Shown here: in pieces, positions 31,015 through 57,776 of the stretch | Numbering within the stretch: position 1 is the stretch's first letter | Layout of the letters: every line of letters starts with the position of its first letter | From: an uncultured Eubacteriales bacterium | GTDB lineage: Bacteria; Bacillota; Clostridia; Oscillospirales; CAG-382 | DNA length: 64,000 nucleotides | Direction of reading: 5' to 3' | Assembly: GCA_934444485.1 (NCBI GenBank) | Contig: CAKSCN010000001.1 | Span: forward strand, 12,355 to 76,354 | The notes under the pieces: generated by a model | Database searches by the model: none | What the model saw: the letters and a program-made list of their open reading frames with translations, nothing else | What the model was told of the DNA's origin: nothing | Translations under genes and position numbers: made by a program

Positions 31015-31047
31015 TCTCCTTTGACCTTGTGACTTCTGTTGTGCCGA

Positions 31048-31074
31048 TACCACATAATTGACATTATGTTGTTT
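31048..31074 (-). promoter_or_regulatory. 27-bp leader element, copy A (upstream of the giant protease-LRR gene)
   Basis: taccacataattgacattatgttgttt is the exact reverse complement of 31246..31272. It lies 33-39 nt upstream of the start codon and contains the internal palindrome ACATAAT-GTCA-ATTATGT. Confidence 0.6.
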
Positions 31075-31245
31075 TAGCATCCTACATTATACACTGTTTC
31101 TTTTGTAAGTCAACATATATATACAAATTAACCCGATTTTTGTAATAATTAACACAAATATTGGATTTTGAATATAAAATTAAATTCAAATTTTGACTTT
31201 ACCGTTTTAATTTCAACACTTTTGCCGCTTGTTTTTACCTTATTT

Positions 31246-31272
31246 AAACAACATAATGTCAATTATGTGGTA
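31246..31272 (+). promoter_or_regulatory. 27-bp leader element, copy B (upstream of the amidase-dockerin gene)
   Basis: aaacaacataatgtcaattatgtggta lies 29 nt upstream of ATG 31302, just before the AGGGAGGAAG ribosome-binding site. Its position and orientation relative to its gene match those of copy A. Confidence 0.6.
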
Positions 31273-31301
31273 ATGCGGCAAAAATATTTTAGGGAGGAAG
31301 A

Positions 31302-34300
31302 ATGATGAAAATCAAACGAACCGTAACCGCTCTGTTCCTTGCGGCGACAATGGTGTTATCCACGCCGTTTGTTGCGGCAGAGGAAAAGCCTGAAGCGTTA
31401 CAGGACGACAGGCAGACCGAAGTAACCGAAACTGCGGAAGCTCCAACCGAAGCTTCACGTGTCGGCGAATCCGGCGAAACCGGCGGAACCGCAGCGGAAG
31501 AAACGGAAACAGCACAAGAGCCGGCGGAGGAAGAACAGAAACCGGCACAGCAGCCCGAGAACAGCGAAGCATCTGAAGCTGAAAAAAATTCGGACGAAGT
31601 ATCGCAAAATGATGAGCAGACCGAAGCGGATAAAACCGCAGAGGAAGAATCGAAGCCATCCGAGGACAAAGAGCCGAACGAAGCGACTGAAGTAGCAGAG
31701 GAAACGATAAAGACCGAAAACGACGAAGCTGAGAAAGTCGAAGAGAAAGCGGAAAATGCAGAAGCCAAGGCTGATAAACCCACTGAAAACGAATCAGCCG
31801 AAACCGACAAAGCCGAGATAGAAAGCGAAACCGATTTGAATGATGATGGCAGGGGAGAAGACGAAAAAATTGCTGAAAAGGTTTTTGATAGTGTTGAAAC
31901 AGTAATTTCAGATGACGAAGAAAACTGCCATACCATGACAAAGAAGTGGTTTTACGACAAGAAAAGTGTTAATTTGTTTGAGGATACAGATCCATCGGTT
32001 TTAAAAACAATTGAAGAATATTTTGATTTTAGATTGAAATCTGTATGTGAAACTCGTGGGAAAGAAACTGAGCTTATATCAGACGATGTTGCCGGGATAG
32101 AAGAAGCCCGCAGAAAAGGTCTTAATAAGTTTTGGAAAAAATTGAATATAAAAGTAACCGACGCCGATCATAATGTGCGAATCGATAAGGTTGAAGAGTC
32201 TGACGGCAATGTTACGGCATACGTTTACGAGTGGATATTCTATGATTATGAAGATCTCGATGCCGACGGTGTGACAATGGATGTCGCAGGATTCGGTGTT
32301 GAACATATTCTATGTCTTGAACTTGTCGACGGCGAATACATAGTCGCAGAAGATCTATACGACGAATCGGAAAGAAGCGGTGTTTGCACAACAGAAGAAA
32401 AAGAATACCCCGACGAGCCTGAGATGATTACATCTGATAAAGAAGGCGGTTATGATGACAGTGCCTCGCTGTTTACTTCGAATTACTATTATGACTACGA
32501 TGTGTCCGCAGCTATTGCCTATGCCGACAAATATGCAATAAACTACAATCCCTCATACTATAACTTCAACTCTATTGGCGGCGACTGTGCAAACTTTGTA
32601 TCTCAGTGTATTAATGCAGGTGGTATGCCGCAAGTGGTAGGTTCTGCATATGGCACAGATTGTTGGTATTATAAAACATCAAACAACCGAAGCGCTACTT
32701 GGACAGGAGCGCACCAGCTAAGAAATTGGATGGCTAACAAAAGAGGATTATTGATATCAAGCCCGAGTAATGACCAATTGTACGCCGGAAGCCCGTTTTT
32801 TACCAACAGCGGTGGACATGCATTGATTTGTGTGGGATACAATTCCGCAGGAAGTGCATTGTATTCTGCTCACAATAGTGACGCATACAGAGAAAAAGTA
32901 TATATTTCAAGTGTGAATTACACTGTTCAGCTTACTCCTTCAAACTATCTAAACAACAAGTACGGCGTAATCTATCACGCTAACGGCGGTACGGGCGAAC
33001 CTTCTTCACAAACAAAATATTATGGTCAGGATATAACCTTGAGTACCGTAAAACCTACTCGTACAGGGTATACGTTTAAGAAGTGGAATACCTCGTCAGA
33101 CGGCAGTGGTATCACATACGCACCCGGCGCAACATACAGCGAAAATGCTCCTCTGCATTTGTACGCTCAGTGGGAGGCAATTTCTTACACAATCACCTAC
33201 AACGCCAACGGCGGCACGGGCGCACCTTCGTCGCAGACAAAGATATATGATCAAAAAGTTACTTTAAGCAGTTTGAAGCCGACACGCACAGGATATGATT
33301 TTGTTTGTTGGAATACGAAATCAAACGGAAGCGGAACGAACTGGTATCCGGGTGATACTTATGGTTACTATGAGGGCAATCTGTACTTGTACGCTAAGTG
33401 GAAAGCGAAAACCTATACGATTACGTATAATGCAAATGGTGGTACGGGCGCACCTGCATCACAAACCAAGACGCATGGTAAGAGTATAAATTTGAGAAGT
33501 TCCACACCGACACGTGAAGGATACGACTTTGTTTGTTGGTATACAAATTCAAACGGTAGCGGCGTTCGTTGGGATCCTAATGAAAACTATAGCATCGATG
33601 AAGACTTGTATTTGTACGCTCAGTGGGAACCGAAAACCTATACAATTACATACAACGCAAACGGAGGAACAGGCGCACCATCGTCGCAGACAAAGACGTA
33701 TGATCAGACCATATACCTAAGCAATTCAGTGCCGGCACGCACAGGTTATGATTTTGTTTGCTGGAATAATATAATTTCTGATGGAGTTTGGGTGGAATGG
33801 TATCCCGGGGATAGCTTCAGTGCTAACTGCGATCTGAATTTGTATGCTCAGTGGGAAGCAAAAACATATAAAATTATATACGACACCAACGGAGGTACAG
33901 GCACACCTGCATCTCAGACAAAGACGTATGATCAGGACATATACCTAAGCAATTCGGTGCCGATACGCACGGGATATGAGTTTGTTCGTTGGAATACAAA
34001 AGCAGACGGAAACGGTGTGAACTGGTATCCGGGTGAGAGCTATAGCGCTAACGACGATTTGTACTTGTATGCGCAGTGGGACAAAGTATACACAATTACA
34101 TACGACGCCAACGGCGGCACCGGGGCACCGGAAGCGCAGGAAAAAATGCCGTGGTACTACCACGTACGCTTGAGAAGCACCGTCCCGACACGTACAGGAT
34201 ACATATTTATATGTTGGAATACAAAAGCGGACGGAAGCGGTGTACGTTGGGACCCCGACGAAGCCTATGACAAAGAAACAGATTTGCACTTGTACGCACA

Positions 34301-34490
34301 ATGGGGTGCTTTTGTTGACATAACAGGAGACGGCAAAACTGACCGTGCGGATGCAGAAATGGTACTGAAGCATGATTCCGGTCTTGTTACACTAACCGGC
34401 AGCCGATTCTCTGCGGCAGATGTAAACAGCGACGGTAAGGTTGATTTCAACGATGCCGTTCTCATGCTGAAATACTTGGAAGAGCATTGA
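31302..34490 (+). CDS. secreted putative peptidoglycan amidase (Amidase_6-like) with an acidic low-complexity N-region, about 7 Listeria-Bacteroides (Flg_new) repeats, and a C-terminal dockerin
   Basis: Signal peptide, then an E/K/T/A-rich region. Putative amidase core IGGDCANFVSQCINAGGMP...GHALICVGY. Repeats of YTITYNANGGTGAPSSQTKxY...PTRTGYxFxxWNT..DGSG..Y.PG..Y......LYAQW. Dockerin DITGDGKTDRADAEMVL...ADVNSDGKVDFNDAVLMLKYL. Confidence 0.8.
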   Translation: MMKIKRTVTALFLAATMVLSTPFVAAEEKPEALQDDRQTEVTETAEAPTEASRVGESGETGGTAAEETETAQEPAEEEQKPAQQPENSEASEAEKNSDEVSQNDEQTEADKTAEEESKPSEDKEPNEATEVAEETIKTENDEAEKVEEKAENAEAKADKPTENESAETDKAEIESETDLNDDGRGEDEKIAEKVFDSVETVISDDEENCHTMTKKWFYDKKSVNLFEDTDPSVLKTIEEYFDFRLKSVCETRGKETELISDDVAGIEEARRKGLNKFWKKLNIKVTDADHNVRIDKVEESDGNVTAYVYEWIFYDYEDLDADGVTMDVAGFGVEHILCLELVDGEYIVAEDLYDESERSGVCTTEEKEYPDEPEMITSDKEGGYDDSASLFTSNYYYDYDVSAAIAYADKYAINYNPSYYNFNSIGGDCANFVSQCINAGGMPQVVGSAYGTDCWYYKTSNNRSATWTGAHQLRNWMANKRGLLISSPSNDQLYAGSPFFTNSGGHALICVGYNSAGSALYSAHNSDAYREKVYISSVNYTVQLTPSNYLNNKYGVIYHANGGTGEPSSQTKYYGQDITLSTVKPTRTGYTFKKWNTSSDGSGITYAPGATYSENAPLHLYAQWEAISYTITYNANGGTGAPSSQTKIYDQKVTLSSLKPTRTGYDFVCWNTKSNGSGTNWYPGDTYGYYEGNLYLYAKWKAKTYTITYNANGGTGAPASQTKTHGKSINLRSSTPTREGYDFVCWYTNSNGSGVRWDPNENYSIDEDLYLYAQWEPKTYTITYNANGGTGAPSSQTKTYDQTIYLSNSVPARTGYDFVCWNNIISDGVWVEWYPGDSFSANCDLNLYAQWEAKTYKIIYDTNGGTGTPASQTKTYDQDIYLSNSVPIRTGYEFVRWNTKADGNGVNWYPGESYSANDDLYLYAQWDKVYTITYDANGGTGAPEAQEKMPWYYHVRLRSTVPTRTGYIFICWNTKADGSGVRWDPDEAYDKETDLHLYAQWGAFVDITGDGKTDRADAEMVLKHDSGLVTLTGSRFSAADVNSDGKVDFNDAVLMLKYLEEH

Positions 34491-34506
34491 TCATTAAAAG
34501 TGCAAA

Positions 34507-36234
34507 ATGCTTTCAAAGAGTAATTATAGCAAGCAACAGCTGATGTTGCTGTTTCCAAACTTGTTGTGTATGCTGTGTGCAGGCGGATTCAATTGGCAAT
34601 ACTGCATTATTCCGTTGATACTTATGGGAATATACCTCGCATTAAATTTCAAAAGAATAAACGGAACGCTCGGTATTGCTTCGCTGGCTTTACTTATTCT
34701 GCTAACGGCATCCGTGGTGTCAACAAAAGGTGATCCAAAGAGTGCGGTTTATGAAAGTGAAAAATTACTTTGCTTCATATCAGCTTTGCTCATTGGCAGT
34801 ACAACCGACAAAAAAAGCATATGCGGTATTTACGGTTTATGTATGACTTTTCTGGCAGCAATCGGTTTGTTTGCATACTGTTTTCACCTTAATTTTGCGG
34901 ACTTAATTCTTGACGACAGATATTTTTTGCGGTTACAATCCTCTGTTCAGTATGCAAACACAACTGCGTGTCTGCTGGCGTGCGGATACTTTTTCTCTAT
35001 TGATACCGTATTAAGAGTCAATACATCTCTCAAGAGATGCATATCGCAAATGATTCTTCTCTCATTGTACCTGACGTTTTCAAAAGCGTGCATTCCCATC
35101 TTTATTGCGGTATGCGTACTGTTAGTTCTGAAAAGGATTAATTGCAGGCTCATTATTGTCAGACAAAATATAATCGCAATGTTATTCTTCATACCTATTG
35201 CAATATGTGTTAAATACAACATATGCTTATTAGCCGGGATGCTTGCTATTGCCTGTATTCTGCTTGGCGGGTATGCGGATAATCATGAGTGGGATTTGTC
35301 TAAACTTTGGCTTGTATTTCTTGCATGCGCACTGATTGTTTCTTTGACAATTGCGATAAAATACCCTGTTGTTTTCGATTCTCTGCACCAAAGAATGGCG
35401 TTTATGAAAGACGCATGGGGTGCAACAAAAAAATATCCATGGGGATTCGGAAGCGGAAGCTGGGAGGTACTGCAATACAAATTTCAAACCGCCTCATACA
35501 GCGTCGGACTTATACATAATGGGTGGTTACAAATATTGTTCGACAACGGTGTAATATTTTTAGCTGTTATAACGACACTAACGGTATTCACGATGTATAC
35601 GCTAAGAAAAAGAAAAGACCACCTCATGTTTTCAGTGATTTCAATTATTTCTCTGCATTCCTTTGTGGATTTTGATTTTTCCTTTCCCATTGTACTAATG
35701 ATATTCGGAATGATTATCGGTTCAACATTAGATATCGACTCAGGGAAAGGGATTGTTCATATTGGCAGATTGTGTTCCTTTGTGTTTTTGGCAGCCCTTG
35801 CAATAACGTCAATCCATATGAGTCGGGAATACATATTGAGAAACTCATTAGAACGAAATTACATGCGAAATGATTTATGGGAAGCAGAGCAAAGAGGCAT
35901 TATACTTGAGAAACTGTGTCCATACGACGCCAAGCTTCAGATATCAATTGGCATGATGGAGTTCTTACAAAACGAAGACACAGCCGCATTGAGAGAACGA
36001 CTCCGCAAAGCAGTCAGCATATCGCCCAATGATCCAAGCGTTTACAAGTACTATATGAAGTACTCGCTTGATACGGATAATGTTTATGATATGTGCTGCC
36101 ATTACATAGATCTTTGTCCAATGCAGGAGGGAACAATGGAGTACATTAACGATTATACAAAGGAGGCATACAACAAAGGGATAATAACCGCAAAAGAACG
36201 AGAAGATATTTTAAAAAAACTCAATAGTCACTAA
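34507..36234 (+). CDS. O-antigen ligase-like (Wzy_C family) polytopic membrane protein with a helical-repeat C-terminal domain
   Basis: 575 aa with more than 10 hydrophobic segments. The loop WGFGSGSWEVLQYKFQTASYSVGLIHNGWLQILFDNGVIF resembles the O-antigen ligase/WaaL signature. The exact start is uncertain because the ribosome-binding site is weak. Confidence 0.65.
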   Translation: MLSKSNYSKQQLMLLFPNLLCMLCAGGFNWQYCIIPLILMGIYLALNFKRINGTLGIASLALLILLTASVVSTKGDPKSAVYESEKLLCFISALLIGSTTDKKSICGIYGLCMTFLAAIGLFAYCFHLNFADLILDDRYFLRLQSSVQYANTTACLLACGYFFSIDTVLRVNTSLKRCISQMILLSLYLTFSKACIPIFIAVCVLLVLKRINCRLIIVRQNIIAMLFFIPIAICVKYNICLLAGMLAIACILLGGYADNHEWDLSKLWLVFLACALIVSLTIAIKYPVVFDSLHQRMAFMKDAWGATKKYPWGFGSGSWEVLQYKFQTASYSVGLIHNGWLQILFDNGVIFLAVITTLTVFTMYTLRKRKDHLMFSVISIISLHSFVDFDFSFPIVLMIFGMIIGSTLDIDSGKGIVHIGRLCSFVFLAALAITSIHMSREYILRNSLERNYMRNDLWEAEQRGIILEKLCPYDAKLQISIGMMEFLQNEDTAALRERLRKAVSISPNDPSVYKYYMKYSLDTDNVYDMCCHYIDLCPMQEGTMEYINDYTKEAYNKGIITAKEREDILKKLNSH

Positions 36235-36238
36235 GGAG

Positions 36239-37774
36239 ATGATTTCTTTGAAAGATTACTGGAAGGTAATAAGCCTCGTACTTACCTTGTCGGTAATGAT
36301 GTCCTATGTTTGCATTTGTTTGGCAGGGACAGACACTGCGGAAAATATCACAAAAGCCGTTGGAGATGTAATTAACGGTCTTGATGATATTGGAAACGGA
36401 CCGACAGATAAAACAAAAACAGAATCCGTCGAAAACATTTCGGACGTTGAAGATGATTTGGCGGAAATCATGTCGGAAAACACCGTAAACAGTGTCAGGG
36501 GAGATGTATACAGCCTCAGGATTGCCGCCGAAAACGGAAAAGTCGGAGACACGATAACCGTCACTGTATCTATCCCGTCAAGAGCCAACGGTACAGGGGC
36601 AGTCGGCGGAAGCTTCAATCTTGTGTACGATAACGCAAAAATGAACCTTGTAGAAGCAACAACAGGAGAGCTTATTTCCGGCTGCGCATCGTCACTCAAC
36701 CCTAATTTTGCGCCAAATAAAATAAGGCTCTCATTTGCCGGGACAAGCGAACTATCGGCAAACGGCGGAGCCCTTGTGACGGCTAAATTTAAATATAAAG
36801 CCGCAGGCACGGCAATATTTTCGGCGGAAGATTTGCAGCTTTGCGGTTTTGATTTAAGTCAATTTTATTGTACCGACTCTTCAAAATCGGTTACGATAAC
36901 CTCGGCAAGCACAACCGTCTCCGTCACCGGAGTCTCGCTTAACAAATCTTCGGCAACGCTCAATGTCGGCGACACAACGACGCTCACCGCAACCGTTGCT
37001 CCTTCAAATGCAACAAACAAAAATGTTACATGGACATCGTCGAACACGGCTGTTGCAACCGTATCAAACGGTGTTGTCACCGCAAAGAAAGCCGGAACGG
37101 CGACGATTACCGTTAAAACCGCAGACGGCAATAAGACCGCAACGTGCAGCGTGACGGTGAAGGCGGCAACTGACAATTCTAAAGCCAGATTTACTTTTAG
37201 CGAAGCTACTGGGCGTCCTGGCAATCAGGTAAAGATTACTCTTAGTTTAAAATCTGCTGAAACAATCAATTCGGTTGCATTGTCAGAAATTAGTTTTGAC
37301 TCCAATGTACTGATATTCGACGGGTTCACGGATTATGACAATATTAGTGACTTGTCAATTCTTCCGCCGAGTTTTGATGCCGATAAAATGGCTATCATCT
37401 TCGCCTTGAAAAACGCAACAGCTTTTGACGGAAAAATATGTACACTAAATTTTAGAATTAAGGAAAATGCTACCGAAGGCGTGTATAATATCAACGCTAA
37501 TTCTACAGTTAAATTTGGTTCAAAGTTAGTTTCGTCGTCTGTTACCGCCGGTGAGATAACAGTTTGTATGCAAATTCTTGGTGATATAGACGGTAATGAA
37601 ACCGTAGATATTGATGATGCCGTGCTTTTATTCCAACATAGCATGCTTCCAGATCTTTACCCTGTCAAATATATCGGGAGCATGGACTTCAACAATGACG
37701 GCACAGTAGATATTGACGATGCTGTCCGCCTGTTCCAATACAGTATGCTTCCGGATTTGTACCCCTTGAATTGA
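36239..37774 (+). CDS. adaptor scaffoldin-like protein: cohesin, Big_2, cohesin, dockerin
   Basis: Cohesin-like module (YSLRIAAENGKVGDTITVTVSIPS...GGSFNLVYDNAKMNLVE). Big_2 module (VTGVSLNKSSATLNVGDTTTLTATVAPSNATNKNVTWTSSN). A second cohesin-like module. Dockerin with duplicated DIDGNETVDIDDAVLLFQHSMLPDLYP and DFNNDGTVDIDDAVRLFQYSMLPDLYP. The true start may be TTG 36248, which is better spaced from AAGGAG. Confidence 0.75.
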   Translation: MISLKDYWKVISLVLTLSVMMSYVCICLAGTDTAENITKAVGDVINGLDDIGNGPTDKTKTESVENISDVEDDLAEIMSENTVNSVRGDVYSLRIAAENGKVGDTITVTVSIPSRANGTGAVGGSFNLVYDNAKMNLVEATTGELISGCASSLNPNFAPNKIRLSFAGTSELSANGGALVTAKFKYKAAGTAIFSAEDLQLCGFDLSQFYCTDSSKSVTITSASTTVSVTGVSLNKSSATLNVGDTTTLTATVAPSNATNKNVTWTSSNTAVATVSNGVVTAKKAGTATITVKTADGNKTATCSVTVKAATDNSKARFTFSEATGRPGNQVKITLSLKSAETINSVALSEISFDSNVLIFDGFTDYDNISDLSILPPSFDADKMAIIFALKNATAFDGKICTLNFRIKENATEGVYNINANSTVKFGSKLVSSSVTAGEITVCMQILGDIDGNETVDIDDAVLLFQHSMLPDLYPVKYIGSMDFNNDGTVDIDDAVRLFQYSMLPDLYPLN

Positions 37775-37808
37775 ATTTGACTGATAAAAAATAGAGAGGA
37801 CTTTAAAC

Positions 37809-40800
37809 ATGAAAAGAATAATAACAATACTTGTGGCGTTGATGATGTGTTTTTCTTTTGTTATCGTGAATGCAAAAGAAGCTATCCCTGCTGAAGCTAA
37901 GTCGATTTTCACTTTGGAATCTTCCAAAGGCTACCTTGGTGAAACAGTTAAGATTAAGATTTCACTTAAATGCACGGAGGATATCAACTCCATAGCACTT
38001 TCAAGATTTAATTATGATGAAAATGTATTTGAGTTTGTTTCTTTTTCTGATTATGATCACATAAACGATATGACAATTCTTCCGCCAAGTTTCGACGAAG
38101 ATGTAATCGCCATTTCTTTAGCTTTGAAAGAAACAAAAAAGTTCAGTGGAACCATTTGTACAGCAACGTTTAAAATAAATTCAAATGCAGAACCCGGTAC
38201 ATATACAATTTCTGCAGAGCCGCTAACTAAAAAGAAGTCTGATATTGTGGATTCTTTCACAATTCCTGCTGAAATAGTAGTATCAGATAGGCCTAAGAAA
38301 GACTTCCCCTCGACGATAAAGTTTGAGGACAAGGAAGTTGAGTACAACGGCAAGGAACAGTCGATAACGGTATCCGGCAAGCTTCCTGCCGGAACAGAGG
38401 TTGAGTACAACAATACCAATAAGGCAACGGACGCCGGAGAATACAAGGCCGAAGCTATTCTCACAGCTCCCGGTTACAACGAGAAAAAGCTTGAAGCAAA
38501 CCTCACCATTCTTCCGAAAGCAATCACCGCAAGCGGAGTAACCGCCGAAAACAAGACCTATGACGGTACTGATGAAGCGAAGATAAGCGGCGGAAAAATC
38601 GAAGGAATAGAGGAGGGCGATGACGTTAACGCCACCTGTCCCGAAACAGGAAAATTCGCAAGTGCCAATGCGGGCAACGGTATTTCTGTTACTGCTTCCG
38701 ATATTGTTCTCAGCGGTGCTGACGCTCATAATTATAAAATTGCGAAGCAGCCGTCGCTGAAAGCAAACATCACTCCCGCCCCCATAACCGTAACCGCAGA
38801 CAACAAGAGCATGAGAAAGGGCGACAGCCTTCCCGAACTTACCTACAGTGTAACAGACGGTGAACTGTTCGACGATAACGCACTCTCCGGCAAGCTTGCA
38901 ACAAAGGCGAACGGTTCCAAGACAGGCGAATTTGACATAACAGTCGGCACACTCAAGGCTTCCGCAAACTACAAGATGACCTTTATCGGCGGAAAGCTTA
39001 CCGTCTCCGATAAAAAAGCACAGGATGTGGTTATCGCAAAGGTTGACAAAAAGACATACGGCGACGCTTCCTTCTCAATTGCTCCCGAATCCGACGGCAA
39101 CTCCGAGCTCGGCACATTTACATACAAAAGCAGCAACTCCGATATAGCGGAAATCGACAGCAACGGCAACGTTATAATAAAGGCGGCGGGAAATGTTTCC
39201 CTGACAGTAGAACGTGCCGGAAATGACAACATCGCAGATTTCAGCACTACCGTTAAGCTCAATGTTGCCAAGGCTAAGATTACGGTTACCGCAAATGCCG
39301 CTACAAAGCGTTTCGGCACTCAGGACCCCGAGCTTACCTATACGTACACAGGCGAGTTGGTCGGTGCGGACGAATTCACGGGTGCTCTTTCGAGAAAATC
39401 CGGCGAAAAGATAGGCAAGTACGCCATTACCATCGGCACACTCTCCCTCGGCAAAAACTACGACATCTCTTTTGTCGGTGCAACCTTTGAAATTACCGAC
39501 AAGACGCCGCAGAATATCACAGTTTCGTGCGACAGCGAAAAAACCTACGGCGACGACGATTTCAAGATTACCGTCACCCCCGACGCCGTTTCCGGACTTA
39601 CAGCATTCACTTATGAAAGCAGTAATACCAACGTTATTGAGGTCTCCGCAGACGGCACCGTTACCGTAAAAGCAGCCGGTGAAGCGACAATTACGGTAAA
39701 GCAAGCCGGGAACGATGAGTTTGCTCCTTTTGAAAAGACGATTGCAATAAAGGTCGGCAAGAAGTCTGTCGGCATTGTTTCTCTCGATTTGGATAACAAG
39801 ACCGTCATTTTCGATATTGATGCGGAGGGCATTTCACTTGACTTTGACAAGCTTGTCATCGAAAGAGTAAAGGATTCGGAGAAGGTCAATGTAACCGGAA
39901 TGGTTCTCACGGGCGAAAAGGCTGAGAACTACGCACTCACAACAGAGTCCTTTGAAACAACGGCGGATGCAGAAAATCTTGTGGATATCACCGTAAAGGC
40001 GTCCGGAGGTGATGTTGAAGGCGCAGGAACACACATAAAGAACAGCAAGGTAACTCTCACCGCAAAGCCTAACTCCGGTTACAGCTTTGACGGATACTAC
40101 GTAGGCACAAAGCTTGTATTTGCCAAGGCGGTATATGAATTTGATGCTGCCGAAGATATTGAACTCACCGCAAAATTTACAAGACACAGTACCGGAAGTT
40201 CTTCCTCCGAGGTCTTTCCCGTGAAGGGCGGTGGAAACAGCGGCACAAAGCAGGAGGTTGCCAAGATAACAGTAACCTTCGACACCAACGGCGGCAGTAC
40301 AATACAGACACAGACTATTTCGACCGGTTGCACCGCAATAAGACCCATGAACCCTGTAAAGGACGGATACATCTTTGACGGTTGGTATTCCGACAAAGAG
40401 CTTACCAAATCGTTTGCATTTGCGACAATTCTCAGAGAGAACACCACAATTTACGCAAAGTGGGCACCCGGAGCGGAAATGGGTAAGAGACAGTTCGTAC
40501 TCACCGTAGGAAGCATGAATGCGAACGTGTTCGGTGAATCAAAGGTAAATGATGTTGCTCCCATAGTCAAGAACAACCGCACCATGCTCCCGGCTCGTTT
40601 TGTTGCTGAAAACCTCGGTGCGACAGTTGAGTGGGACGCCGAAAACCGTGTTGTCACCGTAAAGAATGCAACTGTAACGATTAAGATAACAATCGGTTCG
40701 GATATTGCGACAGTGAACGGCGTTGAAGAGAAGCTTGATTCTCCGGCATTCATAGAGAACAGCCGTACATACACTCCTGTTCGCTTTATTGCCGAAAAGC

Positions 40801-40865
40801 TTGGCGCAACCGTTGAATGGAATGCGGCAAGAAACGAGGTCGTTATCACAAAGGCGGCTCGCTGA
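37809..40865 (+). CDS. anchoring scaffoldin-like protein: cohesin-like module, YDG/MBG repeats, one Flg_new repeat, C-terminal copper-amine-oxidase-N-like (stalk) repeats
   Basis: Signal peptide. The N-terminal module is paralogous to the second cohesin of the preceding gene (shared ...INS(I/V)ALS...ILPPSFD...). KTYDGT and MBG-type blocks (ITVTADNKSMRKGDSLPELTYSVTDG...GTLKASANYKMTFIGGKLTV). C-terminal MLPARFVAENLGATVEWDAENRVVTV and YTPVRFIAEKLGATVEWNAARNEVVIT. Confidence 0.75.
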   Translation: MKRIITILVALMMCFSFVIVNAKEAIPAEAKSIFTLESSKGYLGETVKIKISLKCTEDINSIALSRFNYDENVFEFVSFSDYDHINDMTILPPSFDEDVIAISLALKETKKFSGTICTATFKINSNAEPGTYTISAEPLTKKKSDIVDSFTIPAEIVVSDRPKKDFPSTIKFEDKEVEYNGKEQSITVSGKLPAGTEVEYNNTNKATDAGEYKAEAILTAPGYNEKKLEANLTILPKAITASGVTAENKTYDGTDEAKISGGKIEGIEEGDDVNATCPETGKFASANAGNGISVTASDIVLSGADAHNYKIAKQPSLKANITPAPITVTADNKSMRKGDSLPELTYSVTDGELFDDNALSGKLATKANGSKTGEFDITVGTLKASANYKMTFIGGKLTVSDKKAQDVVIAKVDKKTYGDASFSIAPESDGNSELGTFTYKSSNSDIAEIDSNGNVIIKAAGNVSLTVERAGNDNIADFSTTVKLNVAKAKITVTANAATKRFGTQDPELTYTYTGELVGADEFTGALSRKSGEKIGKYAITIGTLSLGKNYDISFVGATFEITDKTPQNITVSCDSEKTYGDDDFKITVTPDAVSGLTAFTYESSNTNVIEVSADGTVTVKAAGEATITVKQAGNDEFAPFEKTIAIKVGKKSVGIVSLDLDNKTVIFDIDAEGISLDFDKLVIERVKDSEKVNVTGMVLTGEKAENYALTTESFETTADAENLVDITVKASGGDVEGAGTHIKNSKVTLTAKPNSGYSFDGYYVGTKLVFAKAVYEFDAAEDIELTAKFTRHSTGSSSSEVFPVKGGGNSGTKQEVAKITVTFDTNGGSTIQTQTISTGCTAIRPMNPVKDGYIFDGWYSDKELTKSFAFATILRENTTIYAKWAPGAEMGKRQFVLTVGSMNANVFGESKVNDVAPIVKNNRTMLPARFVAENLGATVEWDAENRVVTVKNATVTIKITIGSDIATVNGVEEKLDSPAFIENSRTYTPVRFIAEKLGATVEWNAARNEVVITKAAR

Positions 40866-40973
40866 ACGTTTTTTGCGTGTATGCACTGTCCGAAAGAGTA
40901 AGTATCTGAGGGCATGATATATCTGCGTCCCTCCTCATGGGGGACGCTTTTTACAAAGAGCAGAGAGGAATGC

Positions 40974-43900
40974 ATGATAGTGAAAAAGCATCATCTGAAA
41001 AAAGTCTTTTCATTTGTATTTGCCGTTTTGGTGTGCCTGTGCGGCATGCAATTTGTTGCGGCGGAAGAAAAGGAAGAAAGTTTATCTTTGGAGAATGAGG
41101 AGAATACTGAACCTAATGAGATAGAATCGGATTCTTTTCCATTCTATTTCATTTCCGACGGCAAGCTATATAAAGCCGACAAGGATAGCGAAATACTGAT
41201 CGACGGAGAGTATACATTTAAACAGATTTTTTCGGAGTACAGTCTTGTATTTGCGCGAGGGATTGACTCCGACGGCAACACACACGATGTAATTCTGGGA
41301 AATGCTGGAGAAGTAAACTTTGAAGGGAAGGATAAGATAATCGCTCTTCAATCCGTAACCGGCAGAGCAAACGAAACCACAATATATAACTATATCAGAA
41401 ATACTATGGGATTAAACGAAGCAGCGGCTTGCGGAATGCTTGCAAACATTCAGAATGAGTCCGGCTTTAATCCCACTGCCGAAGGAGATAACTATACAAG
41501 CTACGGCATTTGTCAATGGCACGCTTCACGCAAGGAAAGCCTGAAAAACTATTGTTCAAAAAACAGTCTTGACTACAGAACTTTAGATGGTCAGCTCAAA
41601 TACCTCGAGTACGAGCTGAAAAACAGTTTTGCAGGTGTATGGAATCATCTCAGGACAACTGAAAACACAGCCGACGGTGCTTATGACGCCGGCGCATATT
41701 GGTGTGCCTATTTTGAAAAACCGGCAGGTTACGGCGAATGGAAAAACGGCGTATTAATTTATGGCAGTGTAACAATAGCCCGAGGAAATCTTGCGAAGAA
41801 TACATATTGGGCAGAATATGGAACGTCCGTAGCTGCCTGCGACGGCTGGCTTTACACGCAGTACAATGACCCTGACGGGGAACACAGCATAAACGCAGAC
41901 GCAGCTGTCGGAAACGAACTCGGAACTATTCCTACAGAAGACGGTTCAGGATGCGGATATGTCGTTGTCACAAAATACAGTTCCGACAGGAAATGGGGAT
42001 ATGTATCTTATAAAGGCGTTACCGGCTGGACTCGTCTCTATGAGCCGTATATCAAATATGTCAGCGATTATACCTGTCCTGTGGTCACCTTTAACGCCAA
42101 CGGCGGCACACTTTCCGGCGACAGTACAAAAAAAGTCTACATAAACACATATTACGGCACACTTCCCACTGCTTCAAGAATCGGATATACATTCGACGGT
42201 TGGTACACCTCAACGCAAACACAGAATCCGAAGTATGAAATTACCGCAGATACCGTCGTTTCCGTTACGGTAGATCAAACCTATTATGCCCACTGGACGC
42301 CTAACAACTATACAATCAATTACAGTGCCAACGGCGGTACAGGTGCTCCGGCATCACAGACAAAGACACATGGTCAGAGTATAAACCTGAGCAGTTTAAA
42401 ACCTACACGCACAGGATATACATTCAAGTGCTGGAACACTCAGGCAGACGGAAGCGGTACGGATTGGTATCCAAATGAAACCTACAGCACAAATAGAGAT
42501 TTGTTTTTGTATGCTAAGTGGGAAAAAGTCAGTATAAGTAAAAGTTTGTTTTTGCACCCAAATTATGGAGATAACGAATCCATGCTGCTATGCTTCAACG
42601 AAAGCGGCGAATTTGCTGAAATTGCCCCGTTTGAAAGGGATGGCTACGAACAAATAGGCTGGTCTCTCTCCCCCTCCTCATCCGAAATTGCTTATGGATT
42701 TGCTGATAACAACAGAACCTATATAACGTACGACGAAATGGATGGAGATGTTTACCTCTATGCGGTGTGGAAAGCAAATACATACACCATTACATACAAC
42801 GCCAACGGCGGTACAGGTTCTCCCTCGTCGCAGACAAAGACACATGGTCAGAGTATAAATTTGAGAGACGCTACACCAACACGTATAGGGTACAATTTCT
42901 TGTTTTGGACAGTGACACCTGACGGAGGATCTTGTTGGTATCCGGGCGAAAGCTATGAAGGAAACAGGGATTTGCATTTGTATGCACAATGGGAAGCGAA
43001 AACTTACACGATCGCATATAACGCCAACGGCGGCACGGGTGCACCCTCGTCGCAGACAAAGACACATGGTAAAAGTATATACCTGATAAGTTCAACACCG
43101 ACGAGGGATGGATACGATTTTATTTATTGGAACACAAGAGCGGACGGCAGCGGCGTGCGTTGGGATCCAAACGATAGCTATAGCATTGATGCAGATTTGT
43201 ATTTATATGCTCAATGGAAATCTGTGATCACCCCCGGCGACATAAACGGTGACGGTGAAATTGACTATGCGGATGCAGTCATGGCTTTGAAGCACGACTC
43301 CGGTCTTGTTACACTCACAGGTGACAAGCTCACTGCGGCCGATGTGAACAGTGACGGCGAGGTTGATTTCAACGATGCAGTTCTAATTCTTAAATACGAC
43401 AGCGGGCTTATTTCGGAGTTCGATGTCATTTCAAAGGTTTATTTTGTCCCGGAAAACACAACATACCTGAAAGTCGGCGAGTACTTTAATGTTGACGCCG
43501 TTGCAAGGTATATGGACGGCAGATTCGAGCCATATGCCTCGAAACTGGATATGTATGTTTCTTCAGGTGAAAATGTCGTTTCCGTAAATGGTGTAAAGGT
43601 AACCGCCCTCAAAGAAGGCAACGCAACCGTGCGATTCAGAAATAAGGTGGGTGGGCTTGAAAATGAGAGCTTCTATATTGTTGTTACAGGTGATTCAAAA
43701 GATGAAAACACTATATCCACCATCACGCTTCCGGAAACAAGCGTCACGCTTTATGTCGGCGACACATACGACATATCCGCCACAGCAACTTACAAAGACG
43801 GGAGCCAAAGGCTGTTTGAAAACACAGAGGCGTACATTTACAGTGGTTCAGATTATATCAGTCTCGACGGCAACACGATAACCGGGTTGAAAGCGGGAAC

Positions 43901-44525
43901 TGCGAAAATCAGATTTAAGAACGAGTATCTCTCCAATAGGACTTTCACTGTTTACATAATTGACGTCAGCTACAGAATAACCCGATCCTACGAAAAAGTC
44001 ACTAATGCGGACGGCGAAAAGGTTCTCACCTACACAGTCTACAACCCCTACACGGGCAAAACGGAAGATATTGAGGCGGTAAACCCCAATGCCGCTATCG
44101 CTCCCGCCGGCACGATTCTTTCAAAATCAGACAGTTACTTGAACAACGACGATGTTTACGGTACAATCAATCCAAATCTGTCATCGGGAAGTGTCGAGCT
44201 TAATACCACACTGAAGACCGACAAACTCGGCAAGCTCGGTTGGGTTGAAATTGAAAGCTATGACACAGATTTCGCCACTTTACGCGCTAATTTACGTGTT
44301 GTCGGCGATACAAATGTTTACAACATTACCGGCTCTACGACCGTTACCTTCTTGGATTATTCCGAAGCAACGCTCAAGGTCGTGGACGCCACAGTTCTCG
44401 GTTCATCTTCGACGGCTTATCGGTACAAAAGCAACAAATCAAACAAGCTGAGAGCATTCATATCCGCAAAGAAATCTGCCGGAAGCGGATACGACGCCGC
44501 ATTCGTTATGATTGTGCGTGATTGA
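40974..44525 (+). CDS. secreted lysozyme-like muramidase (phage tail lysozyme-type domain) with Flg_new repeats, an internal dockerin and Big_2-like modules
   Basis: Start at ATG 40974 (GAGAGGA ribosome-binding site; signal MIVKKHHLKKVFSFVFAVLVCLCGMQFVAA). Lysozyme-like block AAACGMLANIQNESGFNPTAEGDNYTSYGICQWHASRKESLKNYC. Flg_new repeats almost identical to those of 31302..34490. Dockerin GDINGDGEIDYADAVMAL...ADVNSDGEVDFNDAVLILKY. Two Big_2-like modules follow. Confidence 0.8.
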   Translation: MIVKKHHLKKVFSFVFAVLVCLCGMQFVAAEEKEESLSLENEENTEPNEIESDSFPFYFISDGKLYKADKDSEILIDGEYTFKQIFSEYSLVFARGIDSDGNTHDVILGNAGEVNFEGKDKIIALQSVTGRANETTIYNYIRNTMGLNEAAACGMLANIQNESGFNPTAEGDNYTSYGICQWHASRKESLKNYCSKNSLDYRTLDGQLKYLEYELKNSFAGVWNHLRTTENTADGAYDAGAYWCAYFEKPAGYGEWKNGVLIYGSVTIARGNLAKNTYWAEYGTSVAACDGWLYTQYNDPDGEHSINADAAVGNELGTIPTEDGSGCGYVVVTKYSSDRKWGYVSYKGVTGWTRLYEPYIKYVSDYTCPVVTFNANGGTLSGDSTKKVYINTYYGTLPTASRIGYTFDGWYTSTQTQNPKYEITADTVVSVTVDQTYYAHWTPNNYTINYSANGGTGAPASQTKTHGQSINLSSLKPTRTGYTFKCWNTQADGSGTDWYPNETYSTNRDLFLYAKWEKVSISKSLFLHPNYGDNESMLLCFNESGEFAEIAPFERDGYEQIGWSLSPSSSEIAYGFADNNRTYITYDEMDGDVYLYAVWKANTYTITYNANGGTGSPSSQTKTHGQSINLRDATPTRIGYNFLFWTVTPDGGSCWYPGESYEGNRDLHLYAQWEAKTYTIAYNANGGTGAPSSQTKTHGKSIYLISSTPTRDGYDFIYWNTRADGSGVRWDPNDSYSIDADLYLYAQWKSVITPGDINGDGEIDYADAVMALKHDSGLVTLTGDKLTAADVNSDGEVDFNDAVLILKYDSGLISEFDVISKVYFVPENTTYLKVGEYFNVDAVARYMDGRFEPYASKLDMYVSSGENVVSVNGVKVTALKEGNATVRFRNKVGGLENESFYIVVTGDSKDENTISTITLPETSVTLYVGDTYDISATATYKDGSQRLFENTEAYIYSGSDYISLDGNTITGLKAGTAKIRFKNEYLSNRTFTVYIIDVSYRITRSYEKVTNADGEKVLTYTVYNPYTGKTEDIEAVNPNAAIAPAGTILSKSDSYLNNDDVYGTINPNLSSGSVELNTTLKTDKLGKLGWVEIESYDTDFATLRANLRVVGDTNVYNITGSTTVTFLDYSEATLKVVDATVLGSSSTAYRYKSNKSNKLRAFISAKKSAGSGYDAAFVMIVRD

Positions 44526-44537
44526 CACCTTTATCAG

Positions 44538-44709
44538 CTGCGACATCGACAGCGACGGCAGAGTGGGACTTTCGGACACGTGAGCTTGCGAAAATGCTCA
44601 GCGACTGAGGAAAACCTAAGCGTGTGTTCGGATAAAGGTATCCGTATATCAAATGCGTACACGCATAATAAATGCGCACCTCAAAAACGAGGTGCGCTGT
44701 CTTTTTGTT
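44538..44709 (+). pseudogene. relic of a dockerin-coding 3-prime end plus terminator, duplicate of 14768..14922
   Basis: ctgcgacatcgacagcgacggcagagtgggactttcggac matches the GH2 dockerin segment at 38 of 40 positions and encodes CDIDSDGRVGLSD then a stop. The downstream gcataataaatgcgcacctcaaaaacgaggtgcgctgt terminator block is also shared. Confidence 0.7.
44674..44709 (+). terminator. rho-independent terminator (copy of 14886..14922)
   Basis: GCGCACC-tcaaaaac-GAGGTGCGC followed by tgtctttttgtt. Confidence 0.6.
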
Positions 44710-44987: not shown

Positions 44988-47900
44988 TTACAGTGATTTC
45001 ATCACATCAAGTAAATGCTGATAGCTGTCAACATCATGGTACTTGACATTTTCGGTAGAAATCTCATTAAAGAGTTTTCTTGCACAGGAAATCTTCGCTT
45101 TTTCAATGGGCTTCAAGCTCAAGCTTTCCATCGTACCCTTAGTCTCGGCGATAAAGTAGATGTGTTTTACCGTTCCCTCGTAGAAAGCGATTGCCCAGTC
45201 GGGCGAATAGTTTCCGACCGGAGTAGGAATATGGAATCCTCTCGGCAGTTTTGCATACACGCATACTTCCTCGGCATTATCCAAGTCCTCGGCAAATCGG
45301 CGTTCCACGCTTTTTTCGGCGTAGCCGTCGGTAAATACATAGTCTTGAATATGCTTTGTCGCCTTGAAAGCCTTGTCAATGCTCGTCAAGGTCTTTTCGG
45401 CAGTAAAGATGGTGCTGTCATACTCGCCCTCAATTTGGTCGTAAGAAATGTGTTCAACAATCATCGTTGCCTTTTGCTCGTTGATAAGGCGAATGACTTT
45501 GGCGATAAATTCTTCCGGATTTGCTTTGTACATAGCAAACTTTACCGGCGAGATACCTTTGATAATTTCTACGACTGTCTTTCTTGTCAAAACTGTTCCT
45601 TCCGCAATTTTGCCAACAAGGTCGTATTTGATTTGGCTTACCTCGCCACGCTTCAGCGTAGTCGTGCGTGTCTTTGCTGTCTTAAATGCTTCGCCACGCT
45701 CCAAGGCGTTTGCGTCCATTTCATCTGTCTGCTCGCCTTTAGAAACCGTGTAGGTCAGCTCGGAAACAAACAGCTCGCTGTCAATATGCTTGATGGATTT
45801 TTGGATTAACTCGGCACTATCGAACGAAACGGTATAGGCGTATTTATGGTTGATCTGCTTCCATAGTGCTTGAAATTCTTTCTTGGCAAAATTATCATTA
45901 AGCGGATTTCCCTTGATTGCGGATTCGTGACCATCCGAGAACATATCATCAAGAACGGAATCATCGTATACCGATTGAATCAATGTCTGAATTCCGTCAT
46001 TCATCGGTGCCAGCTCTGCCGGAAGCGGAGCAAGCGTTCCCATTTTCAAATCCATGCGATACTTGTCCGTAACCTTGCGATCCATGTCAACATACCGGTT
46101 GGCAATCAGATAGAACTCGATAGCGTTTGCCGTCTTATCATCAATAACAGTAGGCTTACCGTCCACCTTGACAAACTTGCCTTTGAAGTATTCGCTGGTA
46201 GCAGCCGTCGGTCTGTCATACAGAACCTTCTTGATGTCAGCTTGCAGGTCAGCCACAAAGCCCTTGTAGCTCTCGCTTGCGATAACCGTCAGCTTGTTAA
46301 TATCGTGGATTCTGTCTCCGAGGACTTCCGCATCCATTCTGTTTCCTGCCCGGTTTACGCAGAGACGCAGACCTCGCCCGACCTCCTGCCGCTTCTGTGT
46401 GGAGCTGTCGCTGTGTTTCAGCGTACAAATCTGGAACACATTCGGGTTATCCCAGCCTTCGCGCAAAGCGGAATGTGAGAAGATGAAGCGTGTCGGCTCG
46501 TCTAAGGAAAGCAGACGCTCCTTGTTCTTCAAAATCAGGTCGTATGCGGAAATATCATCCGAAAACTCGGAACCTCTTTTGAGTGCGGAGTTGATGCTGT
46601 GTCCGGTCTTTTTATCAATGCTGAAATAGCCTTTGTGAGTGTCGGCGACTTCAATGCTGCGGAGATATTTCTGATACGGCGTATCGAACAGAGTCAGATA
46701 CTCGTTAAGAATGTTGTTGTATTCTTCTTCAAAGATACGCCCGTACTCACCGAGCAGCTCGTTTCCGTCCTCATCATATTGGCGGTACTTTGCAACCTCG
46801 TCAATGAAAAACAGGGAAAGCGTTTTGATTCCCATATCAAAGAGTTTTTCTTCTTTCTCAAAGTGAGACTGTATGGTTTCTCTGATTTGGATTCGCCGCA
46901 TATCCTGCTCTACCACATCACCGATAACCTCTCCTTGGCGAATAACCATGCCATTCGTTAAAGTCACCGTGCCGTGAATCGGCTCAATGTCGGAAATGGT
47001 ATAGCCGTTTTTGTATTGCTCCATTTCGCCGGACTTGTAATAGAGGTCGTCGCCGACGGCAAACTGAAACATTTTCCGTTTATGCCCGCTTTGCTGTGCC
47101 ACTTCGATTTCAAGCTTTGCCATAGGCGGCTTGTTCGGAGAAAGCACTATGTTTTCGAGATAGAGATACTGACTCGTGCCGGTAAGGTTCTTTACCTCAA
47201 AGCCCTTGACCTCAATCTTCTTGACGAGTTTCTTATTAAACGCATCCAAAGCGTCAAGTACATAGACAAGGTTGTGCTGCTTGGCGTGCGTGGCAGAGTA
47301 GTTCAAGCTGAACAGCGGATTGAAGTTCTGCAGTGCTTTCTGCGTGACCTCACCGCCCATTTTCTGCGGTTCATCCAAAATGATAATCGGTCTGTTCGCC
47401 TTGATAACATCAATCGGACGGCGGGAACCGAATTCATCACGTTTGGAATAAATTATACGGGCTTCCTTGCTCTTGCCGTCCTCTTTCAAGGAAGAAGCGA
47501 ACGCCTGCGTATTGATAATCATGACATTGATACCGGAGCTTGACGAGAAGTTATCCAGCTCGTTTAAGTTGGAGCTGTTGTAGATGAAGAACCGAGTCTT
47601 CTTGCCGTACTGCTCCATAAAGTGGTCTGTTGTAATCTGGAAAGTCTTATTGACACCCTCACGGATAGCAATAGAGGGAACGACCACAATAAACTTGCTC
47701 CATCCGTAAAGCTTGTTCAGCTCAAACATGGTCTTGATGTAAACATAGGTTTTGCCCGTACCGGTCTCCATCTCTATATCGAGAGAACAGCGTCCGACGT
47801 TTCCGATGAGCTTGTCCGAAACTTTGATGTTGTTCTCGTTCTGAATAGCACGGATGTTATCAAGCAACTGCTCTTTTGTCAGCTCAATCTCTTCATTCTT

Positions 47901-48744: not shown

Positions 48745-48745
48745 A

Positions 48746-51501: not shown

Positions 51502-51509
51502 GAAGATTA

Positions 51510-52100: not shown

Positions 52101-52109
52101 TTAATCACC

Positions 52110-56061: not shown

Positions 56062-56100
56062 AAAGCAAAAGCACACCACGTTTATTGCAGACTGGTGTGC
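56062..56100 (-). terminator. rho-independent terminator after the HD-domain gene
   Basis: On the minus strand, the stem GCACACC...GGTGTGC is followed by TTTTGCTTT. Confidence 0.5.
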
Positions 56101-57762: not shown

Positions 57763-57776
57763 TTTTTGCCGTTTAC

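Follow-up and report, generated by a model that had tools for sequence, protein, structure and literature searches.

The stretch analyzed here, referred to as the window, is 64,000 nucleotides (nt) of contig CAKSCN010000001.1 (assembly GCA_934444485.1, positions 12,355 to 76,354 of the forward strand) from an uncultured Eubacteriales bacterium. Between positions 31302 and 44525 it carries a block of five genes, designated g1 to g5, several of which encode cohesin or dockerin modules. The block is probably a phase-variable surface operon that encodes a three-tier cohesin-dockerin assembly equipped with two complementary peptidoglycan hydrolases, with foreign cell wall as the favored target, and the probability of this reading as a whole is put at roughly 0.55. 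The three-tier assembly is held with good confidence, and foreign peptidoglycan is proposed as the target only tentatively, at slightly below an even chance.

The Five-Gene Block

Five open reading frames (ORFs) are found in the same orientation on the + strand, at 31302-34490, 34507-36234, 36239-37774, 37809-40865, and 40914-44525, and the gaps from g1 to g5 are 16, 4, 34, and 48 nt. The first-pass annotation, an earlier reading of the letters alone, had described five co-oriented and tightly packed genes, and the ORF coordinates and the gaps of 4-48 nt bear this out. Its module assignments were reproduced for g1 (an Amidase_6 enzyme with a dockerin, both recognized with Pfam), for g3 (cohesin, Big_2, cohesin, and dockerin in this order, seen with Pfam and through visible Ca-binding loop repeats), and for g4 (a cohesin, YDG/MBG repeats, and Cu_amine_oxidN1, most of them with Pfam and the cohesin through its similarity to the second cohesin of g3). 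For g5, described as a lysozyme-like enzyme with a dockerin, both modules were recovered, but the dockerin is internal, not terminal, and is followed by an extension of 375 amino acids (aa). Signal-peptide-like N-termini are present in g1, g3, g4, and g5. Identical or near-identical copies of the locus were found by homologue search in several gut metagenome assemblies.

The long g5 ORF begins at 40914; translation probably initiates at M21 (nt 40974). A terminator-like hairpin on the + strand (40925-40947), followed by a T run to 40955, is located between g4 and this probable start, within the first 20 codons of the long ORF. The g5 gene may be transcribed partly independently of g1-g4.

Cohesin and Dockerin Types

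The adaptor scaffoldin g3 (36239-37774, +), recognized by Pfam and by module typing, consists of a signal peptide, a cohesin of type C1 (aa 86-225), a Big_2 module (aa 229-305), a cohesin of type C0 (aa 311-447), and a dockerin of type D3 with the motif SMLPDLYP (aa 447-511). Pfam Cohesin matches two stretches of g3 (E 3e-16). Its Dockerin_1 match reaches 22.1 bits, just below the cut-off of 22.9, with two clear Ca-loop repeats; duplicated repeats of a Ca-binding loop and a helix are visible in the dockerins of g1, g3, and g5 alike. The homologue search with the whole g3 sequence was dominated by Big_2 proteins and gave about 11 informative matches.

All cohesins and dockerins of the window and of 100 related loci (L-numbers) were typed by similarity clustering. 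The D1 dockerin, with the motif DSGLVTLTG, is carried by g1, g5, and the cargo proteins of relatives, and it is found beside C1 cohesins only; this co-occurrence spans three independent lineages (the window, L005, and L006/L007). The D3 dockerin of the adaptor is found beside C0 (the window and L008/L039). Two further types occur in relatives: D0 beside C2, C3, and C5 (L005, L009-L012, and L090), and D2 beside C4 (L006 and L015). The enzyme dockerins of g1 and g5, earlier called near-identical, are 70% identical, but they still belong to one type. As had been proposed, this type is distinct by sequence comparison from the adaptor dockerin and from the dockerin of a GH2 enzyme elsewhere in the window. 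A recurrent layout is recognized in the window, L005, L008, and L090, in which the adaptor ends with a cohesin and a dockerin and the next gene starts with a cohesin of the same type. L009 encodes three cohesin-dockerin proteins.

A natural exchange of modules was observed in sister-strain contigs represented by three assemblies (L102-L104), one of which is from a Hadza sample. These contigs are 99.4% identical to the window from the 3' end of g1 through g2 and the first cohesin and Big_2 of g3, to nt 37170, and they are 97% identical from nt 38292 onward. The segment between, 37170-38292, which in the window contains the second cohesin and the dockerin of g3 and the cohesin of g4, is exchanged en bloc, with breakpoints at module boundaries. 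The replacement cassette encodes two C4 cohesins, a D2 dockerin, and a further C4 cohesin. Such a co-replacement is the outcome predicted if the adaptor dockerin pairs with the anchor cohesin.

Because of the co-variation of types and the cassette swap, D1 is predicted to bind C1 (cargo to adaptor) and D3 is predicted to bind C0 (adaptor to anchor), and both pairings are supported by these comparisons. It is likewise supported that the locus holds a plausible partner cohesin for every dockerin type encoded in it. The proposal that the locus encodes cargo, adaptor, and anchor tiers is thus upheld by the type co-variation and the swap in L102-L104, with the pairing itself inferred from co-variation.

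The gene at 10701-14840 (+) encodes a GH2 enzyme that has a pair of F5/8 type C domains and a third type of dockerin. No partner cohesin for this dockerin was found within the window, and a scaffoldin for it must be encoded outside.

The Proposed Anchor g4

The anchor g4 (37809-40865, +), characterized with Pfam and by similarity to the second cohesin of g3, consists of a signal peptide, a C0 cohesin (aa 27-163), a stalk of YDG, MBG_2, Big_2, and Flg_new repeats, and a C-terminal Cu_amine_oxidN1 module (aa 909-1013; Pfam E 5e-35). The N-terminal cohesin has no Pfam match of its own; it is 47% identical to the second cohesin of g3 (E 1e-38), and the g4 orthologue in L015, a metagenome-assembled genome (MAG) from Hadza gut, matches Pfam Cohesin with 36.5 bits. 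No sortase signal was found in g4. Surface proteins that combine a cohesin with Cu_amine_oxidN1 (PF07833) have been described, namely, OlpC of Clostridium thermocellum and ScaG of A. cellulolyticus (PMC3413522). Cu_amine_oxidN1 is reported to be frequent in cell-wall hydrolases (PMC4137172).

A BspA-type leucine-rich repeat (LRR) protein of 484 aa is encoded at 18112-19566 (+) in the window. Its C-terminus ("GFTVEWDG...") resembles a Cu_amine_oxidN1 repeat by eye, and the module had no Pfam support in this protein at E <= 0.001. This LRR protein may share the wall-association module of g4.

The Predicted Cargo Enzymes g1 and g5

The first cargo gene, g1 (31302-34490, +), was analyzed with Pfam, family alignment, and an AlphaFold2 (AF2) model. 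It encodes, in this order, a signal peptide, a Glu-rich acidic linker of 169 aa, a conserved N-domain, Amidase_6 (aa 399-538; Pfam E 5e-25, 88.9 bits against a cut-off of 23.2), six Flg_new repeats, and a C-terminal D1 dockerin (aa 1006-1059, nt 34317-34478; Dockerin_1 E 2e-7). No Pfam family was found for the N-domain. The catalytic unit of N-domain and Amidase_6 (aa 195-560) belongs to a large family, for which 72 representative clusters were recovered at E < 1e-30. In an alignment of 22 diverse members of the Amidase_6 family, C429 is invariant and H506 and H524 are nearly so.

Among the 50 closest representatives, Amidase_6 is present in all 50, SLH, Dockerin_1, and Flg_new in 13 each, Lectin_C in 9, and RicinB in 6, and fewer carry SH3_3, PG_binding_1, choline-binding repeats, Peptidase_M23, GH25, or Cohesin. 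Dockerins are thus as frequent as SLH on this family (13/50 each). In P0301 and P0302, the closest relatives of g1, the chain that contains Amidase_6 also includes a C0-type cohesin together with an SMLPELYP dockerin, and two relatives combine Amidase_6 with a lysozyme-like domain in a single chain.

No sequence relative of the Amidase_6 family was found in the PDB with single-sequence or profile searches, and no assayed or structurally solved member was found here. The AF2 model of g1 aa 381-560 has a predicted local distance difference test (pLDDT) score of 89.6, and its best structural match is the integrative model of Bacillus subtilis YjcM (E 6e-8). Matches to CHAP, NlpC/P60, and other papain-like wall hydrolases are weak (E 0.03-1.3). 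The modelled fold is papain-like: the Cys is placed at a helix start, and each His lies on a beta strand or next to one.

The second cargo gene, g5 (40974-44525, +, from the probable start), was characterized with Pfam and a sequence match in the PDB. It encodes a signal peptide, a lysozyme domain (Phage_lysozyme2, aa 153-298; Pfam E 5e-30, 104.9 bits against a cut-off of 28.2), a weak SH3b-like stretch, four Flg_new repeats, an internal D1 dockerin (aa 774-828 of 1203, nt 43233-43397; Dockerin_1 E 5e-8), and the extension, which begins precisely where the orthologous dockerins of L005 and L006 stop. The extension contains two weak Big_2 modules and about 200 aa, for which no Pfam family was found. 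The lysozyme domain is homologous to the N-terminal lysozyme domain of phi29 gp13 (PDB 3csr, E 7e-9), in which "NMQSES" aligns with "NIQNES" of g5. The Glu of this motif, E182 in g5, is presumably the catalytic residue. Homologues of the g5 domain are secreted proteins with SH3_3, LysM, PG_binding_1, SLH, or fn3; several carry a dockerin, and one carries both a dockerin and a cohesin.

On sequence comparison, the dockerin of g1 and g5 takes the place of the wall-binding modules of their relatives. Because of the family matches, the conserved residues, the fold, and the wall-binding modules of relatives, g1 and g5 are credible peptidoglycan hydrolases with complementary bond preferences, an assignment that rests on sequence and fold. 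Predicted wall hydrolases tagged with a dockerin are common and are not unique to this locus.

An origin of the g5 "phage tail lysozyme" by conjugation or from a prophage was considered and rejected, as there are no phage or transfer genes beside the block and the close homologues are ordinary secreted proteins with wall-binding modules.

Two minor features concern the 3' part of g5. A match to NCBIfam NF053514 ("BLB8/JUQZ-1 family") in the extension (aa 881-913, nt ~43554-43652) stands exactly at the 40-bit cut-off and may reflect merely the Big_2-like fold. Just after the g5 stop codon, at 44538-44705 (+), stands a relic copied from the GH2 3' end (14768-14935). It is about 85-90% identical to the GH2 3' end, with a 2-nt deletion, and contains the second dockerin repeat, a stop codon, and a bidirectional terminator (44674-44697). 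The relic shows that the C-terminal extension of g5 displaced, or was fused into, a gene whose 3' end formerly encoded a GH2-type dockerin.

The Membrane Protein g2

The g2 gene (34507-36234, +) encodes a predicted multi-pass membrane protein of a rare, putatively Wzy_C or O-oligosaccharyltransferase-like family, as indicated by its homologues, a family profile, and an AF2 model. The match to Pfam Wzy_C is below the cut-off (E 0.011, 16 bits against 31.7), and there is no NCBIfam match. Just eight homologues were found, at about 33% identity, some with precomputed Wzy_C matches. R296, H337-N338, and H384 are invariant in the family, and the best PDB match of the family profile is the "oligosaccharyltransferase" 9rmk (E 0.002). 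In the AF2 model (pLDDT 77), several membrane passes are followed by a TPR-like domain at the C-terminus (~aa 440-575). Of the earlier description as an O-antigen-ligase-like membrane protein, the membrane topology agrees with the AF2 model; the ligase assignment is weak, with Wzy_C below its cut-off, and is supported through the homologues.

In the scan with the g2 family alignment, relatives were found in MAGs from the gut of humans, goats, and buffaloes, which are labelled as uncultured Clostridia or Oscillospiraceae. In three other lineages, homologues of g2 are located inside cohesin-dockerin clusters. The cluster of L011/L012 combines the g2 homologue with a cargo protein of NlpC_P60, LRR, and dockerin and with an SLH-cohesin anchor, and that of L009/L010 is similar. 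In L015, the g2 homologue is accompanied by a cargo protein of Transglut_core and dockerin and by the g4 orthologue. It is likely that g2 is functionally linked to the cohesin-dockerin assembly.

A Putative Invertible Promoter Upstream of g1

The segment upstream of g1 is bounded by an inverted repeat, and the first-pass annotation overlooked this probable invertible promoter. The left arm (31048-31074, 27 nt) and the right arm (31246-31272, 27 nt), which ends 30 nt upstream of the g1 ATG, are complementary at 27 of 27 positions, against a chance expectation of 0.00 matches. They enclose a putative invertible segment of 171 nt with 24% GC (31075-31245). Each arm contains the near-palindrome ACCACATAAT-TGAC-ATTATGTTGT, a layout typical of a tyrosine-recombinase site, and no further copies of this site were found elsewhere in the window. 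The ribosome-binding site of g1, AGGGAGG (~31292-31298), is located between the right arm and the ATG.

One strong promoter-like site is present in the segment, TTGACT-16-TATAAT on the minus strand (31113 to 31086), with an 11/12 match to the sigma-70-type consensus. It lies 12 nt from the left arm and, by this consensus match and in the assembled orientation, faces the divergent gene of a surface protein of 3682 aa (20032-31080, -). This protein, designated as S8-LRR, contains Peptidase_S8, one Flg_new, and 18 BspA-type LRR stretches. Its true start is probably M23 (nt 31014), because the gene caller used a 3660-aa start in L002/L105. On the + strand there is no gene for 11 kb upstream of g1, and therefore g1 transcription must start in or next to the segment.

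A Recombinase-Associated Inverton Family

The cohesin-dockerin clusters of L005, L008, L009, L011, and L012 have a gene for a 279-aa tyrosine recombinase directly before a pair of sites of the same type. These recombinases are 58-93% identical to one another, and a metagenome scan with their alignment revealed 80 more loci. The site pair follows the recombinase gene directly in 73 of 83 loci and begins no more than about 130 nt beyond the stop codon. Of the ten recombinase loci that lack a pair, nine extend for at most 626 nt past the gene, and L035 alone has more, about 2 kb. From 41 distinct sites the consensus ACMACATAAT-N4-ATTATGTKGT was derived, and the window arms fit it at every conserved position. 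The enclosed promoter-bearing segments are 205-320 nt long in the recombinase loci, compared with 171 nt in the window; the invertons of the five clusters are located at 3504-3756 (L009), 5134-5386 (L011), 1366-1618 (L012), 6155-6419 (L005), and 8160-8470 (L008).

Inversion is visible when near-identical loci are compared. L011 and L012, from different metagenomes, share 300 nt of 100% identical sequence on either side of the segment, and their 205-nt cores match at 100% only after one of them is reverse-complemented; in L012 the promoter points toward the cluster, and in L011 it points the other way. The homologous segments in relatives contain one such promoter near one end and occur in both orientations, and both orientations were found in five independent groups of near-identical loci.

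The inverton family precedes cohesin-dockerin clusters in 14 of the 73 loci. Other members are found before genes for giant LRR proteins, Eco57I-type restriction-modification systems (methylase and helicase), SPFH/Band7 with zinc-ribbon proteins, and signal-peptidase-like small-gene clusters; examples, among L022-L101, are L099 (11829-16234), L067 (11001-16408), L022 (4377-5681), and L101 (11174-12292). This distribution suggests that the family serves generally in the phase variation of surface and defence loci. Upstream of the L015 cluster, a site of the family was looked for and not found. It was also considered whether every inverton-controlled cohesin cluster carries peptidoglycan-hydrolase cargo, and this was rejected, as eight further first-gene cargo proteins had none.

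A conserved ORF of 73 aa with no Pfam match is located just 5' of the recombinase gene in L009 (2348-2569), L011 (3980-4201), and L012 (212-433).

Proposed Mechanism and Alternative Explanations

In the proposed mechanism, secreted g4 would be held at the wall by its C-terminal Cu_amine_oxidN1 module, and its long stalk of Ig-like and other repeats would carry a single C0-type cohesin at the tip. The adaptor g3 would dock to g4 through its D3 dockerin. Since g3 itself carries a C0-type cohesin, it could also accept further g3 molecules, and the adaptor would thus probably self-chain into short chains, much as R. bromii Amy4 self-associates (PMC4611034), a feature that the first-pass annotation had overlooked. 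The C1-type cohesin, one per g3, would bind the D1 dockerin of g1 or g5. The papain-like cysteine hydrolase g1, of the CHAP or NlpC/P60 kind, is expected to cut the peptide stem, and the lysozyme-like g5 is expected to cut the glycan strand. The membrane protein g2 would probably glycosylate the scaffold components or the wall polymer that holds them.

The enzymes would act on foreign peptidoglycan, either of neighboring cells or in wall debris, and this is the least secure step. A foreign target is favored over housekeeping autolysis because the enzymes are distant from the producer wall and because the operon seems optional. A tyrosine recombinase encoded elsewhere would flip the 171-nt segment, so that the strong promoter would drive either the S8-LRR giant, as assembled, or the scaffold operon g1-g4. 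Because the terminator-like hairpin precedes g5, this gene would be only partly coupled to the switch.

A more far-reaching joint reading is improbable as a whole: a phase-variable and self-chaining cohesin-dockerin filament on the cell surface, a "murosome", would concentrate a glycan cutter and a peptide cutter and would break or feed on the walls of neighbors, one flip would also silence the S8-LRR giant, the inverton family would be widespread and apparently undescribed, and cassette swaps would rewire the assembly. The flip would then switch the scaffold on in a subpopulation, and the inverton family would place such assemblies under bet-hedging control.

Several observations speak against the proposed surface operon. 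The second cohesin of g3 and the cohesin of g4 are just 47% identical, and therefore their shared specificity is not certain. The swap in L102-L104 needed to include the second cohesin of g3 only if the left breakpoint was upstream of it, and linkage alone could explain part of the pattern. The D1-tagged cargo in L005 and L006 is an LRR or Big_2 protein, not a hydrolase. Some homologues of g2 are located in housekeeping contexts without cohesins (L013, L014, L016, and L018), where they follow rpsB-tsf. In the two reports on Cu_amine_oxidN1, its link to the wall is an association and not a demonstrated binding activity (PMC4137172, PMC3413522). As for the switch, the promoter call is a consensus match, and a weaker match (9/12) on the + strand is also present inside the segment. 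The window, L001, and L002/L105 all show the inverton in a single orientation, and no homologue of the 279-aa recombinase was found within the 64-kb window; for these two reasons, flipping at this locus is treated as no more than probable.

The alternative that survives best, although unlikely, is the same assembly with the enzymes as autolysins of the producer, serving wall turnover, daughter-cell separation, or the opening of space for large surface structures, with the dockerin merely substituting for an SLH, SH3, or LysM tether. The relatives of both enzymes do carry wall modules typical of autolysins (SLH in 13/50, SH3_3, PG_binding_1, LysM, and choline-binding repeats), g5 contains the weak SH3b-like stretch, and no immunity-like gene is evident in the block. 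The evidence on the other side is indirect: essential autolysins would not be expected behind an on/off promoter switch that faces away in three assemblies, and the geometry is ill-suited, with a stalk protein of 1018 aa, an adaptor, and four to six repeats between the catalytic domain and the anchor.

It is rather unlikely that the inverted repeat is the dead or static relic of an inverton and that the operon is constitutively weak, off, or driven by another promoter. Such a relic would fit the lack of a recombinase in the window and the single orientation in the covering assemblies, as well as the right half-site, which is one base off the commonest consensus (TTGT instead of TGGT). TTGT is, however, as common as TGGT among the family sites (17 and 16 at that position), and the perfect complementarity of the 27-nt arms argues for ongoing selection or recent activity. 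A single recombinase can act in trans on several sites, as RecV of Clostridioides difficile and Mpi of Bacteroides fragilis do.

It is quite improbable that the complex is not muralytic and that the substrate of the catalytic domains is some other polymer of the surface or the host, for example a glycoprotein, or a peptide or isopeptide bond. In line with this possibility, Amidase_6 is a "putative amidase" family for which no solved or assayed member was found, the fold matches to CHAP and NlpC/P60 are weak, and lectin domains occur among relatives (Lectin_C in 9/50 and RicinB in 6/50). NlpC/P60_2 of Ruminococcus flavefaciens was also reported to have no detectable protease activity (PMC3573020). 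Against it, members of the Amidase_6 family co-occur with a lysozyme-like domain, Peptidase_M23, GH25, PG_binding_1, SH3_3, and choline-binding repeats, and the match of g5 is to a phage wall lysozyme that has been studied experimentally, with the Glu conserved.

Least probable of all is that the block is not a functional unit, its dockerins binding scaffoldins encoded elsewhere and its gene proximity reflecting an island of variable surface proteins: the GH2 dockerin without a local partner, a lone lysozyme-dockerin gene far from any cohesin in L020, the broad cohesin specificity documented in Ruminococcus bromii, where a single surface cohesin accepts many dockerins (PMC4611034), and the dockerin relic after g5, which shows a patchwork locus, are consistent with it, but the dockerin and cohesin types co-vary across lineages and were exchanged together in the sister strain, which is difficult to account for unless pairing is local.

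Comparison with Known Systems

R. flavefaciens has more than 220 dockerin proteins, of which roughly half are not carbohydrate-active enzymes (CAZymes); one such protein, RflaF_05439, contains two NlpC/P60-like modules and an X-dockerin and binds the ScaE cohesin (PMC3573020). The surface cohesin Sca2 of R. bromii is bound by peptidases and LRR proteins through their dockerins, and Amy4 of this species, which has both a cohesin and a dockerin, can self-associate (PMC4611034). The cellulosomes and amylosomes of Ruminococcus (ScaA, ScaB, ScaC, and ScaE of R. flavefaciens; Sca proteins and Amy4 of R. bromii) resemble the system proposed here in their type-specific tiers of cargo, adaptor, and anchor. 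They differ in that the present block is without carbohydrate-active cargo, its anchor uses Cu_amine_oxidN1 instead of a sortase signal, and the whole system forms one small operon behind a putative invertible promoter.

Because of the precedent of RflaF_05439, a dockerin on a wall-hydrolase-like enzyme is not new; that protein is likewise an enzyme of the papain-like wall-hydrolase superfamily, tethered to the cell surface through a dockerin. It docks straight onto the sortase-anchored ScaE of the cellulosome, with no dedicated adaptor or anchor genes beside it, whereas here the catalytic family is Amidase_6 and a predicted glycan-cleaving partner shares the dockerin type. OlpC and ScaG are similar to g4 in the presence of a single cohesin and PF07833 in one surface protein. 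In g4, by comparison, the cohesin is N-terminal and PF07833 is C-terminal, with about 750 aa of YDG, MBG, Big_2, and Flg_new repeats between them, and the predicted partner is the adaptor dockerin, not an enzyme dockerin. The combination of a glycan cutter and a peptide cutter is also seen in phi29 gp13 (lysozyme and M23 peptidase), to whose lysozyme domain g5 is homologous; here the two predicted activities are on separate polypeptides, which would be joined non-covalently through the shared dockerin type.

Invertible promoters under tyrosine recombinases are known from fimS of Escherichia coli with FimB and FimE, from cwpV and the flagellar switches of C. difficile with RecV, and from the invertons of Bacteroides. 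The segments described here are similar to these in having short inverted repeats around a putative promoter segment of about 170-320 nt, upstream of genes for surface structures, and in the occurrence of both orientations among natural populations of the related loci. They are distinct in the site family ACMACATAAT-N4-ATTATGTKGT and in the conserved 279-aa recombinase. In the window, a divergent gene for a surface protein stands where the recombinase gene would be, and therefore one flip could toggle two outputs.

In the open-access literature searched, no paper was found that combined a dockerin with an invertible promoter, an inverton, or phase variation. Within this literature, a dedicated operon that combines two complementary wall hydrolases as cargo with their own adaptor and anchor appears to be new, as do the recurrent Wzy_C-like gene, the specificity cassette swap, and the link between cohesin-dockerin clusters and invertons. 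The family of 279-aa recombinases and their invertons is apparently undescribed, and it may already stand in large inverton catalogues.

Implications

Cohesin-dockerin systems have been studied almost wholly as machines for the digestion of plant fibre or starch, and on/off control by DNA inversion is usually tied to capsules, fimbriae, and restriction systems. The proposed operon would extend the cohesin-dockerin principle to the display of bacterial-wall cutters in uncultured gut Clostridia, and cohesin-dockerin assemblies are apparently also placed under on/off control by DNA inversion. The binding specificity seems to have been rewired naturally through the swap of a cohesin-dockerin-cohesin cassette across a gene boundary, which provides orthogonal pairs ready for use and lets the pairing rules be tested on natural material. 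With its site consensus, dedicated recombinase, and observed flips, the inverton family makes phase variation testable in existing metagenomic reads from poorly studied gut taxa.

Neighboring Genes

Downstream of the block, a lower-GC island (38-47% GC) is located at 44988-58610 on the minus strand and contains several genes of defence type. These encode a type III restriction enzyme (ResIII and RE_endonuc, 1032 aa), an N6/N4 DNA methylase (661 aa), and a protein with ASCH and SNF2-helicase domains (1224 aa). The island also includes a DUF4238 protein and unannotated ORFs.

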